Shown here: piece by piece, positions 2,762 through 11,983 of the stretch
Numbering within the stretch: position 1 is the stretch's first letter
Layout: every line of letters starts with the position of its first letter
From: a virus
Taxonomy: Duplodnaviria; Caudoviricetes
Length of the DNA: 64,000 nucleotides
IMG/VR virus record: IMGVR_UViG_2861773553_000003
Span: 1 to 64,000 of that record
Strand: one strand, 5' to 3'
Program-made: the position numbers and the translations under genes
The notes under the pieces: generated by a model
What the model was told of the DNA's origin: nothing
Databases searched by the model: none
What the model saw: only the letters and a program-made list of their open reading frames with translations

Positions 2762-3079
2762 AGCCGCCGGGACCGCACCCCCGCCCGGTGTTGTTCGACG
2801 AACCCGGCCGGCTCCGCCGGCCAACCCCGCACCAGATGCCCGGCCCATGCCGCACTGTCCGGATTACCAGGAGGGGGAGCGCCCGCCGTACGGCGGCCCT
2901 CCCCCCGAGAACGGTCTTCAGACCCGCCTTTACAAAGTAGACCAGAACGTGCGCGGGGGACGGGGCCAGGCCCCTTCTGCCGCAGCAACGGGTCCCCCGG
3001 CGCCGACCCGACCACCCTAGCCGCCGGACCCCCGCGGCTCCGGCACCGCCACGCCCGACACACGCCGAACGGAGCACCC

Positions 3080-3424
3080 ATGCCCACCTACAAGATCGAC
3101 CTGGTGGCCGTCGTCACCCTCGACGTCCAGGCCCCCACCGAGACCGACCTGCGCGCCGCCGTCGCCCGATGCGACAGCATCGAGGACCTCCCCCGCGCCG
3201 ACCTCGGCGGCCTCCCGGCCGAGGTGATCGCCATCGCCCCCCGCACCCTGCTGGAACTCGTCGACGCCCGCGACGCCGACAACCGCCGCCTGCGCCGCGC
3301 CCTGGCCGCCTACCGCACCGCCGCCAGCGACTGCGACAGCCACGCCCTTGGCGCCGACGCCGAGCACGAGGCCGCCCAGAACCTCGCCGACGCCGTCGAA
3401 GCCGCCCTGGACGGCCTACGCTGA
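3080..3424 (+). CDS. Hypothetical protein
   Basis: GGAG SD; GC3-biased frame. Confidence 0.7.
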   Translation: MPTYKIDLVAVVTLDVQAPTETDLRAAVARCDSIEDLPRADLGGLPAEVIAIAPRTLLELVDARDADNRRLRRALAAYRTAASDCDSHALGADAEHEAAQNLADAVEAALDGLR

Positions 3425-3428
3425 GCCC

Positions 3429-3818
3429 ATGCCGCACAGCCGCCGCCTACCGGGCCGGCTCATCCGCGAGCCCGCCCCCGAGCTGACCCCCCTGCCGGGC
3501 GCCACCAGCTACGTCCTGACCGGACAGCGCTGGCGCATCGCCGTCCTGGACGACGCCGGCCCCCTCGGCGGCGCCCCCGGGCGCGGCCTGGCCCTGGTCT
3601 TCGACCTGGTGCTCGCGCCCCAGGACCGCCTGCGCGCCGCCAACCTCCTGTGCCTGGCCGTGGAGGCCGCCCTGGTCCTGGCCGACCACGGCACCCGGCT
3701 GACCCTCGGCACCCTGCTGCCGATCCCCACCAGCTCCGGCACGCACATGAGCCTGCGGGTCTGCGGCACGCTGCCCTCGGCCGAGGACGCCCCCCTGCTG
3801 TCCCTGACCTGTCCCTGA
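3429..3818 (+). CDS. Hypothetical protein
   Basis: Starts 4 nt after the previous stop; GC3-biased frame. Confidence 0.6.
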   Translation: MPHSRRLPGRLIREPAPELTPLPGATSYVLTGQRWRIAVLDDAGPLGGAPGRGLALVFDLVLAPQDRLRAANLLCLAVEAALVLADHGTRLTLGTLLPIPTSSGTHMSLRVCGTLPSAEDAPLLSLTCP

Positions 3819-3865
3819 CCCGGCCCGGCTGACGCGCCCGGCCGTCTTCCCACCAAGGAGCCCCC

Positions 3866-4150
3866 ATGCCCGCCCACCCCCTGCTCGTCCCCGATACCCG
3901 CACGCGCACCTGCGTGCGCTGGCAGCTTCACTGCCCGCGCTGCCACAGCCCCGACCTGGACCGCGAGCCCCCGGGCCCCGACCACCGGGCGGTGACCCTC
4001 CACCCGGACCGGGACGAGTACCACAGCCCCATCGGCACCCGCGGCGGCTACGTCCACATCGCCCTGGCCTGCGCCTACGGGCACGAGTTCGCCGTGGTCC
4101 TGGCCAACCACAAGGGTGCCGAGTACCTCGGACTGGTGGTCGCCCCATGA
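3866..4150 (+). CDS. Small Zn-ribbon-like hypothetical protein
   Basis: CPRC ... CAYGH; AAGGAG SD. Confidence 0.7.
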   Translation: MPAHPLLVPDTRTRTCVRWQLHCPRCHSPDLDREPPGPDHRAVTLHPDRDEYHSPIGTRGGYVHIALACAYGHEFAVVLANHKGAEYLGLVVAP

Positions 4151-4836
4151 CCGAGCCCGACCCCGAGCCCCTGCCCCTGCAGTTGCCCCTGCAGCTGCCC
4201 GCCGGCCCCGGCGGGCCGCACCTGCTGGCCACCGACGGCTCCAGCGGTCCCGACGCCTGCGGGCACACCATCTGTGGGTATGCGGCCGTCCTCGGCGACG
4301 GCCGCGCCATCGCCGGTGCGTTCCGCCGCCCGGCGCCCCGCCGCCCGGAGGGCAGCAGCAGCAACGCCGAGCTGGCCGCCGTCCGGCACGGGCTGCGCCT
4401 GATCGAGACGGGCCCGGTCCGTCTCATGCTCGACGAGGCGGACATCGTGCAGATCGTCCGGGCCTGCGTCCAGCCCGACAGCGACCCCGACCGGCTGCAC
4501 CGCTCCCGGCGGCACCTGTCGGCCGAGGCTCTGCGCGAGATCGCCGACCACGGGCGGCGCCTGCAGATCACCGTCGCCCGCGCCCATGGCGGCGCCCACA
4601 ACCGCCTGCCCGTCCAGCCCGCCGCCCGCGCCGCCCACTGCCTGGCCTGGATGGCCCGCCGCGCCGAGGCCGAGGGGGTGGACCTGACCCCCATGCTGGC
4701 CGACATCGCCCGCGCCGCCACCAGCACCTCCCGGGTGCGCACCCTGGTCCGCCAGCGCTATCGGTCCGTGCTCGCCCGCCACGCGCAGATCGATGCATAC
4801 CTCGACCAGATCGTGCAAGACTGGACCAATCCCTGA
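4147..4836 (+). CDS. RNase H-like domain protein
   Basis: ATDGS, SNAELAAV and MLDE motifs match RNase HI acidic residues; ATGA overlap with the upstream gene. Confidence 0.65.
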   Translation: MTEPDPEPLPLQLPLQLPAGPGGPHLLATDGSSGPDACGHTICGYAAVLGDGRAIAGAFRRPAPRRPEGSSSNAELAAVRHGLRLIETGPVRLMLDEADIVQIVRACVQPDSDPDRLHRSRRHLSAEALREIADHGRRLQITVARAHGGAHNRLPVQPAARAAHCLAWMARRAEAEGVDLTPMLADIARAATSTSRVRTLVRQRYRSVLARHAQIDAYLDQIVQDWTNP

Positions 4837-4886
4837 GGCCGGGATGGCCCGGGGGCGGCCTTGCCGAGGTCGGCCGACCGCCTGTC

Positions 4887-4976
4887 CTGCTCCCCGCGCA
4901 TGCGGGGATGACCCCTTGGCGGTGCCGTGGCCCCACCACGGCCCGGCATGCTCCCCACGTCCGTGGGGGTGAACCC
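4887..4976 (+). CRISPR. Type I-E-like CRISPR mini-array (2 repeats, 1 spacer); no cas genes in the window
   Basis: Repeat 1 CTGCTCCCCGCGCATGCGGGGATGACCCC (4887-4915, 29 bp); 32-bp spacer (4916-4947); repeat 2 ATGCTCCCCACGTCCGTGGGGGTGAACCC (4948-4976, 29 bp). Confidence 0.75.
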
Positions 4977-5242
4977 CGTTCGTCCCGTTCTGGCGGCCGG
5001 CCCCAGCACGGCGTTCGTCCGGGTCCGGCTCACGCGAGCCGGACCCGGACGGCTCAGTGCCGGCCGGGCTCGGCTATCGCCTCGGCGGGGAGGCCGCCGA
5101 CCAGCAGGTGCGGGCTGGCGCAGGGGTCCAGCACCGCCGCGCTGGCGCGGTCGCGGCGCTCACGCAGCATGCGCCGCCGCCAGGACGGGGCGAGCGGGAC
5201 GCCGAGGTAGGCCACGCCGGGCGGGTGCCAGGTGGGGCCCCC

Positions 5243-5276
5243 TAGTCCCGACCTACGCTTAGTCCCGACCTACGCT
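5243..5276 (+). repeat. 17-bp tandem duplication TAGTCCCGACCTACGCT x2
   Basis: Exact copies at 5243-5259 and 5260-5276. Confidence 0.9.
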
Positions 5277-5300
5277 GAGCACTCCAGCGAAGGAGTGCAC

Positions 5301-5738
5301 ATGATCGAGATCCGGATATCGCAGGACGGCGCTCCCCTCACCGCCGAGGGCCCGCACAGCAGCGAGGGCGCCCGGATCATCGCCGCCGGCATCGGCGAGG
5401 CCGTCCGCCTGCTCAATCACGCCACCTGGGGCGGCGCCCACCTGGCCAGCCCCGCCGCCGTCTACAGCATCTACGGCAGCCTGGCGGACGCGGCGCGCAG
5501 ACTCCCGCAGGCGCTGACCCAGATGGAGCAGCACATCGCCGACGCCGTGGCCGACGGGACCGTCCGCGAGGACCCCGACTACGGCTCCCACGGTGGCCAC
5601 GCCCAGGCCGCCGCCGCCGAGACCACCGAGCTGACCCGGCAGGCCTGCGCCGCGGCCGGTGAGCTGTCCCGGCTGCTGGACCGGCTCCAGTCCGCCGTGG
5701 GCGGACTGGCACGGGTCGACCCCGGCCCGGACCGGTGA
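5301..5738 (+). CDS. Hypothetical helical protein
   Basis: AAGGAG SD; GC3-biased frame. Confidence 0.7.
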   Translation: MIEIRISQDGAPLTAEGPHSSEGARIIAAGIGEAVRLLNHATWGGAHLASPAAVYSIYGSLADAARRLPQALTQMEQHIADAVADGTVREDPDYGSHGGHAQAAAAETTELTRQACAAAGELSRLLDRLQSAVGGLARVDPGPDR

Positions 5739-6058
5739 GCACGATCAACCCGTGGCTCGCGCGCGCCGGCCTGGACTTGGACGCGCTGCCCGGCCTGCCC
5801 CTGGTGCGCCTGCGCGGAGCCGGCCACCGCCCCCCGCAGCGCAAGCTCGCGCTCTGGCTGGCCCTGAGCGACGGAACGCTGCGCGCCCTGCTCGCCTGGC
5901 CGGTCCTGGTCGAGACGGTGGGGTTCCAGGTGCGCGGCGAGCCCCTCGTGTGGCTGCTCGGCTGGTACGAGGAGGATGAGCTCGACCCCCTCGACGGGTG
6001 GGCCGAGGCGTACGAGGACGTGCCGGTCCTCGATCCTGAGGGACGACGGGTGCAATAG
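5735..6058 (+). CDS. Hypothetical protein
   Basis: GTGA overlap with the upstream stop. Confidence 0.6.
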   Translation: MSTINPWLARAGLDLDALPGLPLVRLRGAGHRPPQRKLALWLALSDGTLRALLAWPVLVETVGFQVRGEPLVWLLGWYEEDELDPLDGWAEAYEDVPVLDPEGRRVQ

Positions 6059-6144
6059 CGGGCGCGGCGCTCTTCCCCGGCGCCCCGCCGTACATCTGCC
6101 TACACTGGAAAACCGTGACCGCCGTGCATATCCCAGGAGGGGCG

Positions 6145-6438
6145 ATGAGCGTCATCCACCGCTCGCGAGCCGACGTGCCCAGCCTGACCCCCGAGTCCAT
6201 CCTGTCGCACCTGCCGGAGGAGTACCGGAGCGGTTTCCTGGTCGAATACCACGCCGCCCTCAAGCAGGCCTACGACCCCACCCGCTACGACGCCATCGAC
6301 AAGGTGCTGCGCCTGTGGCGGCTGCAGGCCGTGGCCCTCTCCGACCCCACCTACCGGCAGCGGATGGCCGACGCCGAGCGCGGTGAGCCCGGCGTGCCGG
6401 CCGAGGACGTCATCCCCGGCTGGGCCAATCGGTCGTAG
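6145..6438 (+). CDS. DUF6247-like putative antitoxin
   Basis: TPESILSHLPEEYRSGFLVEYHAAL...VLRLWRLQA pattern; AGGAGG SD; precedes a RelE-like gene. Confidence 0.65.
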   Translation: MSVIHRSRADVPSLTPESILSHLPEEYRSGFLVEYHAALKQAYDPTRYDAIDKVLRLWRLQAVALSDPTYRQRMADAERGEPGVPAEDVIPGWANRS

Positions 6439-6444
6439 GCCGCG

Positions 6445-6702
6445 GTGAAATATCAGGTGGAGTTCGCCGCCACCGCGGCGGCCCAGATCCCCGGCCTGCC
6501 CGAGCTGGCCTTCGTCGCCATCGTCTCGGCCCTGGCCGGCATCCGCACCAACCCCTGGCATGGCCTGCCCGTCTACGGTGCGCCGCCGGAGTACCGGATG
6601 GTGACCGTCAGTGACACGCGCGGCGGCGAGGGCCTGATCACCTACCGCGTGGATCAGGAACGCGCGCTCATCCACGTCTTCGACATCACCTGGTTGGACT
6701 AA
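6445..6702 (+). CDS. RelE/ParE-family toxin
   Basis: YQVEFAATAAAQI...NPW...LITYRVD...IHVFDITW; 85 aa. Confidence 0.7.
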   Translation: MKYQVEFAATAAAQIPGLPELAFVAIVSALAGIRTNPWHGLPVYGAPPEYRMVTVSDTRGGEGLITYRVDQERALIHVFDITWLD

Positions 6703-10282: not shown

Positions 10283-11983
10283 ATGCCCCTCGCCCCCGTG
10301 GCGGCCCTTCCGGCCGCCCCGCTCGACTCGGCGCTGCTGGACCAGCTGCGCACCTTGCCCGATGAGGCGTTCACCCGCCTGCAGTACCTCACGCCCGCCG
10401 CCGGCTGCGCCAACCGCTGCGCCTTCTGTAGCCAGGCCGCCGGCCGCGACATCTGGCAATTCACCGCGCCGGGCCTGACCGCCTTCACCCGCGCCTTCGC
10501 CGCCGTGGCGCGCGAGCGCGGGCTGCACATCGCCGGCGGCCGCGCCCACCGGCCCGGGGTGCTGTTCCCCTACCTGGACAACGACATCTTCAGCTACCCG
10601 CACCTGGACGTGCTGTGCGGCCTGGCCCGCGACGTGCTCGACGTGCGGCTGCGCGTCTCCTCGGTCGGCTTCTCCCGGCACAACGCGGACCTGGTGGCGA
10701 TGCACGCCCGGATCGCCGCCGAGCACGGCGCGGTGTTCGACGGGATCCGGCTCTCGCTCACGCCGTACACCATCGGCTGGACCGGGGCCGATCCCGGCAC
10801 CGACCGGTCCGAGTTCATCGCCGACTTCGCCCACGCCCTGGCCACCTACCGGCCGGTATTCGACCAGCTCGGCCACGGCCCGGCCACCGCCGCCGTGGAG
10901 ATGCGATTCGCGCCCCTGCTGGGCCTGGCCGAGCTGGTCGACACCGTGATGGCCGGGCGGCACGTGCTGGGCTGCGGCCCGCACCTGCTCATCGCCTGTG
11001 ACGAGCACGACGGGCAGGGCCTGCCGCTGACCGAGATCGCGCGGCTGGACGAGCGCACCCAGCCGGTGTTCACCGAGCCCGGCCGCCGTTACCTGCACCT
11101 GGTCGGCGACCATCTGGACGTCAGCCCGGCGACGGTGCGCGCGGCGCTGGCCGGGGAGTTGACGGTGCCGCACCGGGCCCGGCACGTGCAGCTGCACCGC
11201 TTCGCCAACGCCGCCGACGGCGACTACTACGCCGCCGACCCCGACTTCCACATCGACGGCACCTTCCGCGCCCTGCACCTGTACCCGGCGACCGAGACCC
11301 GCACCCGCTCGGGCTACACCGACGCCACCCGCTGGCTGCTCAACACGCTGCTCGCCTACAAGGCCGCGCATGACCTGGGACGCCGCGACCCGTTCGCGGC
11401 GGCCACGGCGGGCGACGTGGCCGCCGTCCTGGCCGACCTGGAGGCCACCGCCGCCGCGCTCGCCAGCGGCGTGGACGCACGCGCGGCCGACCACCTGACC
11501 CAGGTGGTCATCCCGATGGCCCGCGGCTACGCCCAGGCGCTGGAGTTGGCGGACTATCCGCCTGCGACGTTCTTCTCCCGCGACTTCTCGGTGGACACCG
11601 GGCAGATCGTCAACCAGGGCCGGGCCATGGGCCTGTTCCGGGGGCTGGTGAGCCTGGACGGCGAGCCGATGACGCCGCGTGAGGAGCGCGGCTTCGGCGC
11701 CGCGTCCCTGTCCAGCGTGCGCGGCCCGATCTGGCGCATCGCCCCCGTGCCGTACGCCGACGGGGGCCAGCTGGCGCCGGCCCTGGCCGGAGGCAAGAAC
11801 AGCGTCGCCGATCGACCCACCGTGGTGATCGAGGAGCTGGACCCCTGCCACCTGCGGCCCGTCATGCGCGGCAGCTGCACCCGGCTGCGCCGCTTCACCG
11901 TCACGGGCGTCGAGGTCGAGCGGGTGAGCCTGGCCCAGGCTCGCGCCGACCTGGGCCTGCCCGGCCTGCTCCCGGTCGCCTGA
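10283..11983 (+). CDS. Radical SAM protein with long uncharacterised C-terminal region
   Basis: N-terminal CxxxCxxC (GCANRCAFC); 566 aa. Confidence 0.75.
   Translation: MPLAPVAALPAAPLDSALLDQLRTLPDEAFTRLQYLTPAAGCANRCAFCSQAAGRDIWQFTAPGLTAFTRAFAAVARERGLHIAGGRAHRPGVLFPYLDNDIFSYPHLDVLCGLARDVLDVRLRVSSVGFSRHNADLVAMHARIAAEHGAVFDGIRLSLTPYTIGWTGADPGTDRSEFIADFAHALATYRPVFDQLGHGPATAAVEMRFAPLLGLAELVDTVMAGRHVLGCGPHLLIACDEHDGQGLPLTEIARLDERTQPVFTEPGRRYLHLVGDHLDVSPATVRAALAGELTVPHRARHVQLHRFANAADGDYYAADPDFHIDGTFRALHLYPATETRTRSGYTDATRWLLNTLLAYKAAHDLGRRDPFAAATAGDVAAVLADLEATAAALASGVDARAADHLTQVVIPMARGYAQALELADYPPATFFSRDFSVDTGQIVNQGRAMGLFRGLVSLDGEPMTPREERGFGAASLSSVRGPIWRIAPVPYADGGQLAPALAGGKNSVADRPTVVIEELDPCHLRPVMRGSCTRLRRFTVTGVEVERVSLAQARADLGLPGLLPVA

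Follow-up and report, generated by a model that had tools for sequence, protein, structure and literature searches.

A CRISPR-derived unit joining two type I-E repeat families on a probable plasmid of a bacterium without detectable cas genes

Plasmids that lack cas genes but bear CRISPR arrays form an established class, with 150 such arrays counted in 11,805 plasmids (Bernheim et al. 2019, PMC7145637), and according to that study such plasmid CRISPRs often match the cas subtype of the chromosome. Repeats are also carried by mobile elements as mimics: type I-E RNA anti-CRISPRs (Racrs) have been validated and SRUs reported on 90 plasmids (Camara-Wilpert et al. 2023, PMC10651486), and one validated Racr is encoded 11 nt behind an acr gene, in the same transcript. 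Cracr mini-arrays of type I-E exist as well, with 16 candidates from plasmids and some from Actinomycetota, according to a preprint (10.1101/2024.10.29.618823). Hybrid units with repeats of two families are undescribed in the literature gathered on Racrs, Streptomyces orphan arrays and BP phages, in a search that was not aimed at such units.

The locus analyzed here lies in a window of 64,000 nt (the whole stretch of DNA that was studied), corresponding to positions 1-64000 of contig C20 in an assembly of 8.99 Mb and 62 contigs that is 100% complete by markers. The unit and its immediate surroundings comprise the following features.

4147-4836, + strand: RNase H-like gene, GC3 0.94, with a product of 229 aa that is extended by helices at its C terminus; its stop lies 50 nt before repeat 1
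4837-4886, + strand: GC-rich gap of 50 nt from the stop codon to repeat 1, without leader sequence
4887-4915, + strand: repeat 1 (R1), CTGCTCCCCGCGCATGCGGGGATGACCCC, I-E family A; stem CCCCGC/GCGGGG, handle ATGACCCC
4916-4947, + strand: spacer, TTGGCGGTGCCGTGGCCCCACCACGGCCCGGC, 32 nt, 81% G+C, with an internal 7-bp hairpin
4948-4976, + strand: repeat 2 (R2), ATGCTCCCCACGTCCGTGGGGGTGAACCC, I-E family B; stem CCCCAC/GTGGGG, handle GTGAACCC
5016-5051: perfect 16-bp inverted repeat (100% complementary) with a 4-nt loop, 40 nt after R2; candidate terminator without a U tail

The starts of R1 and R2 are 61 nt apart, and the 29-32-29 geometry that a sequence-only reading of the window had reported for this stretch is exact. 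As in type I-E arrays, there are at least two repeats of ~29 nt with a stem-loop and an 8-nt handle, a spacer in the 32-33 nt range and a 61-nt period; a leader with a promoter directly upstream of R1, and cognate cas genes in cis or in trans, were both absent. In each repeat, a stem of six perfect base pairs closes a loop of 4 nt. The two repeats agree at 21 of 29 positions, and the pair G10-C17 of R1 is A10-T17 in R2. Allowing up to 3 mismatches, R1 was found at one site in the window and at none in 100 shuffles. The MFE fold of 4837-5065 contained both repeat hairpins together with the spacer's own hairpin, which had likewise been recognized from the letters, and none of 200 shuffles was as stable (z = -3.7); the 5016-5051 hairpin was present in both the MFE and the centroid folds. 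The Rfam scan of 4600-5400 returned neither CRISPR nor any other credible family. The unit at 4887-4976 was confirmed as real and CRISPR-derived.

Comparison with arrays from other genomes placed the two repeats in different families, A (R1 type) and B (R2 type). R1 matched the consensus repeat of the other arrays of its own genome at 26 of 29 positions and, by inspection, a repeat on plasmid pSMg1-2 of Streptomyces sp. Mg1 at 28 of 29. Arrays of the R1 type were found in the family genomes G067 and G015 (both at 97% match) as well as G087, and those of G087 adjoin a full cas operon. On the 135-kb plasmid pSMg1-2 (L027) there are two leader-bearing I-E arrays, one of 3 and one of 13 repeats, the repeats of which end in ATGACCCC, and the repeat of the 3-repeat array is one base from R1; no annotated cas gene was present in the 6 kb of this plasmid that were inspected.

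Family B was searched by scanning one genome per species for the stem pattern CTCCCCAC-NNNN-GTGGGGGTGAACCC, which yielded 15 stretches, ten of which were parsed (the other five are the MAG loci L044, L048, L051, L053 and L057). Nine of the ten parsed loci were regular 61-nt arrays or array fragments with the repeat CTGCTCCCCACGCCCGTGGGGGTGAACCG or a close variant, and came from Actinomadura pelletieri, A. meridiana, Acrocarpospora catenulata, Streptosporangium, Rhizohabitans, two Frankia species (three loci) and one MAG; the remaining one, from A. macrocephala, was a solitary copy. Long arrays of family B, with a CCCCAC/GTGGGG stem and a GTGAACC handle, are formed in Actinomadura, Acrocarpospora, Streptosporangium and Frankia. 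In genome G114, from the host's own family, arrays matching R2 at 97% are located on the same contig as Cas7e. The agreement of R2 with one A. pelletieri array repeat was 27 of 29 positions by inspection, including a shared GTCC loop, the two differing at the first and last base only. Judged by these sequence comparisons, R2 is a near-canonical member of a second natural I-E family and not a decayed copy of R1. The proposal that R2 had diverged from R1 while keeping its hairpin through a compensatory pair was thus not borne out: since each repeat matches a living repeat family, the "compensatory pair" is a between-family difference.

The succession of an A-type and a B-type repeat was also found outside the window. 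Junctions, searched as an A-type repeat followed by a B-stem repeat 38-40 nt later, were detected in G028 and G082, out of 400 other family genomes, and in one metagenome record (L058), and in none of the viral contigs searched. In all three, the pair formed the intact end of a short, leader-bearing array (4, 4 and 3 repeats), in which the last intact repeat carries CCCCAC/GTGGGG and the preceding repeats CCCCGC/GCGGGG (L075, L074 and L058). In G082 (L075, G082:C60), G10A and C17T are the sole differences between the terminal repeat and its three neighbours, and in the 3-repeat metagenome array the junction pair is followed by a third, degenerate repeat. In G028 (L074, G028:C1) a strong hairpin lies ~45 nt after the terminal repeat, compared with 40 nt in the unit, a likeness of architecture and not of sequence. 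Terminal repeats may preserve an older stem variant. Because the stem exchange separates the two families and recurs at array ends, it gives no evidence of selection at 4887-4976; of the covariation originally claimed, the exchange of G10-C17 for A10-T17 is there to be seen, and the selection read into it did not stand.

Seven other I-E-type array loci, with the consensus repeat CTGCTCCCCGCGCACGCGGGGATGGTCCC, were present in the same genome.

C9:97274-97788: array of 9 repeats
C9:120089-120177, minus strand: array of 2 repeats
C9:120461-120611, + strand: array of 3 repeats
C11:23334-23545: array of 4 repeats
C11:31819-32030: array of 4 repeats and a decayed one
C11:37133-37527: array of 7 repeats
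C19:83087-83237: array of 3 repeats, just behind a TrwC relaxase gene

A common conserved leader of ~100 nt, ending in ..GACAAACCTGCAGGTCGCGGAGT, precedes the six + strand arrays. Repeats are perfectly identical within several of the genome's other orphan arrays, and the terminal repeats of arrays C11b, C11c and C19 are decayed, with broken stems. Array C9a has identical spacers 4 and 5 (C9:97485-97577), and its repeats mostly carry a G-U wobble in the stem (CCCCGT/GCGGGG), one of them an A-C mismatch. The two C9 mini-arrays at 120089-120177 (-) and 120461-120611 (+) diverge from a shared stretch of ~290 nt, a layout such as the deletion of a cas operon lying between two leaders would be expected to leave; when the divergent arrays were compared with the loci of relatives, repeat matches dominated the comparison. 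On an 11.7-kb contig (C33:649-727), two I-E-like hairpins ~49 nt apart were observed ~55 nt downstream of the ORF 103-594, their orientation being ambiguous because the stems are nearly palindromic.

As the sequence-only reading had stated, there are no cas genes in the window, and none were found in the whole assembly either. The Pfam models for Cas6e, Cas7e, Cse1 and Cas1 gave no matches in the genome; three of these four models match only one of 14 control genomes, but the Cas7e model is sensitive in this group, since it finds 42 of the family's 121 genomes. Likewise, tblastn with seven Cas proteins from the I-E operon of a family relative (G057) returned nothing below E 0.07, the best matches to the genome being translated repeats, and its positive control was found at 100%. 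The ORFs beside the other arrays of the genome included no cas genes, and the searches covered all but 2,222 assembly bases, a remainder too small for an operon. With no Cas6e or Cascade in the host, no crRNA can be made there. The expectation of a type I-E host therefore holds for the lineage, where Cas7e occurs in 42 of 121 family genomes, and fails for the host assembly itself; hijacking of Cascade, gene repression and Racr activity, the roles first put forward for the unit, would be possible only in another, Cas-bearing host.

Location on a mobile element, also part of the initial description, agrees with the properties of contig C20. Its first 63 nt are identical to its last 63 nt, giving a circle of ~84.8 kb (about 84,785 bp); end overlaps of any kind were found in four of the 62 contigs (47 nt in the 18.3-kb contig C30). 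The recognizable genes of C20 encode two ParA-type ATPases, a ParB_N protein, DUF932, GntR, DUF6197, DUF397/DUF5753 pairs, a D12 methyltransferase and an IS110 transposase; most of its genes are of unknown function, and none was recognized as a replication or transfer gene. From the end overlap and the partition genes, it is a well-supported inference that C20 is a plasmid. No close relatives of it were found. At the DNA level, 3860-5740 had no flank homologue in the 400 family genomes (tallies that take in genome G124, on which no conclusion depends), where only arrays matching the repeats were hit, and the plasmid collection gave array-type matches only for the unit itself. Weak matches of neighbouring genes were obtained on Actinomadura and Streptomyces plasmids, and those two loci are without repeats. 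Further along the contig, two perfect direct copies of 17 nt in tandem (TAGTCCCGACCTACGCT) occupy 5243-5276, just upstream of an RBS and the ATG at 5301, and could be an operator or iteron.

One array of the genome holds a spacer that matches the plasmid.

11213-11244, + strand: protospacer identical (32/32) to spacer 3 of the chromosomal array C11:37133-37527 (spacer at C11:37284-37315), inside the ORF 10283-11983

Among the 25 spacers of the genome that were tested, only one, other than that of the unit, has a second match, and BLAST of 543 unique spacers of the fetched loci against the plasmid gave nothing convincing except the genome's own spacer. The protospacer is flanked by GCC on the 5' side and CTT on the 3' side. 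In Streptomyces avermitilis, the type I-E PAM is AAG upstream, with rare inversely inserted spacers showing CTT downstream (PMC4762764); by analogy, the CTT flank at 11213-11244 fits an inversely inserted spacer taken beside an AAG PAM. The identical spacer would record contact of the array's adaptation machinery with this plasmid or a relative, although an inversely inserted spacer might not have licensed interference. Its match to a resident plasmid is a case of self-targeting that is tolerated in a genome without cas genes.

The spacer of the unit is an outlier in self-structure. With an MFE of -19.6 kcal/mol, it was equalled in stability by four of 540 natural spacers from related arrays and by one of the 118 spacers with GC >= 0.72, and its self-structure exceeds that of 99% of natural spacers; among random 32-mers of the plasmid, 1.2% were as stable. 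Neither a second copy nor a near match of it was present in the own genome, and the collections gave no significant match, the best E being 0.2 among 72,556 plasmids and 3 among 50,697 phage records. Partial matches in the fetched loci, which included the cas operons of two relatives, numbered 9 compared with 0-16 in 20 shuffles; the cas loci in this comparison were few, and none was of B type with its promoter. The search of phages, plasmids and cas operon regions for a target, as recommended at the outset, therefore yielded none, and the match to related mobile elements that would mark a mobile-element mini-array was not found. Natural spacers mostly have no known match.

The unit lies directly behind a same-strand gene (4147-4836), as had been pointed out, and the RNase H fold assigned to its product was confirmed, the family signal being weak but consistent. 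The product itself had no Pfam match and no close relative. The ESM Atlas placed it with RNase H on the basis of both features (0.91) and structure (TM 0.60-0.65), and an exhaustive search yielded 25 remote homologues. Pfam RNase_H was matched by 8 of 25 aligned family members (the query and 24 of the 25 remote homologues), and the best PDB matches of the family profile were RNase H domains (E 1e-3). The single-sequence AF2 model had a pLDDT of 44 and was replaced by an alignment-based model (pLDDT 91), the top Foldseek PDB matches of which were all RNase HI or RT RNase H. The acidic catalytic residues expected of this fold appear to be in place, the motifs DGS, NAELAA and LDEAD having been read by eye. 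On the strength of these several lines of evidence, the assignment of the gene as RNase H-like is supported. Among 400 other genomes of the order, 7 contain homologues of it, at 13 loci in all, and I-E-like hairpins were found within ~1.5 kb of none of the 13, so that the repeat-spacer-repeat geometry is not conserved beside the gene in relatives. Tandem paralogues, two or three in number, were observed at L061/L067/L070 (G130:C52), L062/L069 (G565:C32) and L063/L068 (G212:C47). Downstream of the unit, a small ORF on the minus strand (5054-5215, 53 aa, with a coding-like GC3 of 0.94) converges on the RNase H-like gene, with the 5016-5051 hairpin between them. A scan of 3000-6500 for consensus promoters and terminators returned nothing, being tuned to sigma-70 promoters and T-tailed terminators and uninformative at high GC.

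Taken together, we regard it as on balance probable that the unit is the stranded tail of a type I-E array, inert in its Cas-less host. R1 would be the last regular repeat, followed by the last spacer and by R2 as the terminal repeat, the three having been left on the circular plasmid of ~84.8 kb; R2 would keep an older or alternative stem variant, as terminal repeats do in short arrays of the bacterial family. The stranding would have come about by a leader-proximal deletion or rearrangement, or by capture from another array. The unit would be transcribed within the 3' end of the mRNA of the RNase H-like gene, to which it would add at most a stable hairpin stack ahead of the 16-bp terminator-like hairpin. 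This reading is preferred mainly because A-to-B junctions recur at array ends, and also because there is no leader, no cas gene and no spacer target, and because none of the 13 RNase H-like loci has repeats. Moreover, the exact 61-nt spacing and near-canonical repeats are what is expected of a real Cas1-Cas2 integration product, and the seven other orphan I-E loci indicate that CRISPR debris is common in this genome.

Several observations count against an array tail. Both stems of the unit are perfect, whereas the terminal repeats of the genome's own arrays are broken, and R2 is of B type in stem, loop and handle, whereas the terminal repeat of G082 is so in the stem only. A stop codon on one side and a strong hairpin on the other closely frame the unit, an arrangement also known for the validated Racr behind an acr gene (PMC10651486). 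In addition, I-E adaptation machinery has sampled the plasmid, so an anti-CRISPR would have been useful to it, and the exceptional self-structure of the spacer is odd for a genuine guide.

These points lead to a distinctly less probable reading, in which the unit would be a Racr-like or Cracr-like decoy or regulator, co-transcribed with the RNase H-like gene and acting in Cas-bearing hosts. Its hairpins would mimic the repeats of both families that circulate among the host's relatives and bind Cas6e and Cascade subunits, or load Cascade with a useless or repressing guide, thereby shielding the plasmid. Such a role would suit an intergenic unit on a circular plasmid-like replicon, without a leader of its own but on the strand of the upstream gene and 50 nt away from it, with intact stems and with repeats that are near-canonical for two different families, each known beside a cas operon (A in G087, B in G114). 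The 32/32 match of a host array spacer to the plasmid points in the same direction, and precedents are available in the Racrs and SRUs (PMC10651486) and in the Cracrs (10.1101/2024.10.29.618823), and further in stretches of I-E-like repeats in BP phages (see below). Nevertheless, the assembly contains no Cas protein on which a decoy could act, the exact 32-nt spacing speaks for an array origin and not for a designed decoy, and partial matches of the spacer to the cas operons of relatives stayed at chance level. The absence of the unit beside all 13 loci with upstream-gene homologues and the finding that each of the other three A-to-B junctions closes an ordinary array weigh in the same way, as does the breach of the "solitary" rule of SRUFinder (PMC10651486). 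A more specific version, which we consider unlikely, is that of a bivalent decoy with one repeat per I-E family, which would titrate or mis-load the Cas6e and Cascade of either variant; a Cas-less host with an anti-plasmid spacer would then represent a late stage of the conflict.

Little credence is given to a role in RNA that is independent of CRISPR, in which the repeat hairpins and the 16-bp hairpin would stabilize or terminate the RNase H-like transcript. The stop codon is indeed followed by four consecutive stable hairpins, in a region that folds better than 200 of 200 shuffles, and the possible convergent ORF 5054-5215 would make 5016-5051 a candidate two-way terminator; however, such hairpins are lacking at all 13 homologous RNase H-like loci, and any GC-rich hairpin would serve, which leaves the identity of the repeats unexplained. 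Even less is to be said for a working one-spacer mini-array that would, in a I-E host, produce a crRNA with a 5' handle from R1 and a 3' hairpin from R2, directed against another element or a host gene. The 29-32-29 geometry, the intact hairpins and an orientation matching that of the upstream gene would allow it, and so would the frequent match between Cas-less plasmid CRISPRs and the chromosomal cas subtype (PMC7145637), but neither the own genome nor the 72,556 plasmids and 50,697 phage records held a protospacer, the self-structure of the spacer would hinder guiding, and both Cas proteins in the host and a leader at the unit are lacking. Finally, chance resemblance was rejected, being practically ruled out by the repeat matches (R1 26/29 and 28/29, R2 27/29), the 61-nt spacing and the lack of any R1-like site in 100 shuffles, even though short palindromes abound in high-GC genomes and a loose form of the stem pattern occurred 1.6 times per window in shuffles.

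Overall, the interpretation first given to the unit is partly supported. Of the three results named beforehand as refuting it, two were obtained, the host assembly having no I-E system and the geometry not being conserved beside any of the 13 homologous genes. If the unit is an array tail, it carries a caution, namely that a mini-array repeat that looks "covarying" is no sure sign of selection at its locus, given that the second repeat can show an alternative stem shared by terminal repeats and a sister family. The genome also offers a compact picture of CRISPR decay, with seven orphan I-E loci, no cas genes and a spacer against a resident plasmid. If instead the unit is a decoy, it would be a plasmid-borne RNA anti-CRISPR directed at two families in Actinomycetota, with a bearing on how large actinomycete plasmids spread among hosts that have different I-E variants.

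A related arrangement was detected in phages. In eight Streptomyces cluster BP phages (16 records), an unannotated intergenic stretch matches the unit; their hairpins were read in phage Piccadilly only, the other seven being known by the matching sequence. In Piccadilly, the intergenic region between genes 53 and 54 (L028, 1379-1680) contains six diverged I-E-like hairpins spaced by 49-61 nt. In the BP phage genome announcement (PMC9583777), a term search found neither "CRISPR" nor "repeat". From its sequence, the Piccadilly cluster is a candidate multi-copy RNA anti-CRISPR locus. It resembles the unit in its diverged I-E-type hairpins, its mixed ATGG and GTGG handles and one copy with the GCAT loop of R1, and differs from it in having six copies with irregular spacing, the unit being single.

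With respect to the described systems, the unit is closest in build to the ends of type I-E arrays in Actinomycetota, with which it shares 29-nt repeats, a stem of 6-7 bp, an 8-nt handle, a 32-nt spacer and a variant last repeat. It departs from them in lacking a leader, additional repeats and any cas genes in the assembly, in being plasmid-borne and directly behind a protein-coding gene, and in an R2 that is of B type in loop and handle too. Like the orphan plasmid arrays of PMC7145637, it is a CRISPR on a plasmid without a cas cluster; those arrays, however, have on average 16 repeats, and about half of them are accompanied by a chromosomal cas cluster, compared with two repeats and no cas genes here. 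Racrs and SRUs (PMC10651486) share with it the character of an intergenic repeat mimic on a mobile element without cas genes, but the SRUFinder rule set out there, of no full or partial second repeat within 100 bp, is violated by R2, which starts 61 nt downstream, and ~90% of SRU-carrying viruses infect hosts with CRISPR-Cas, whereas the host of the unit has no matching Cas system. Cracrs and the unit are alike as mini-arrays of repeat-like, spacer-like and repeat-like elements on a mobile element, yet according to the preprint (10.1101/2024.10.29.618823) Cracr spacers match promoters of cas or toxin genes over the PAM-proximal bases, and for the spacer of the unit no such match was present in the loci available. 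Plasmid CRISPRs without cas genes and repeat mimics on mobile elements are thus already known, and the twist of this locus is the presence of two families in one unit.
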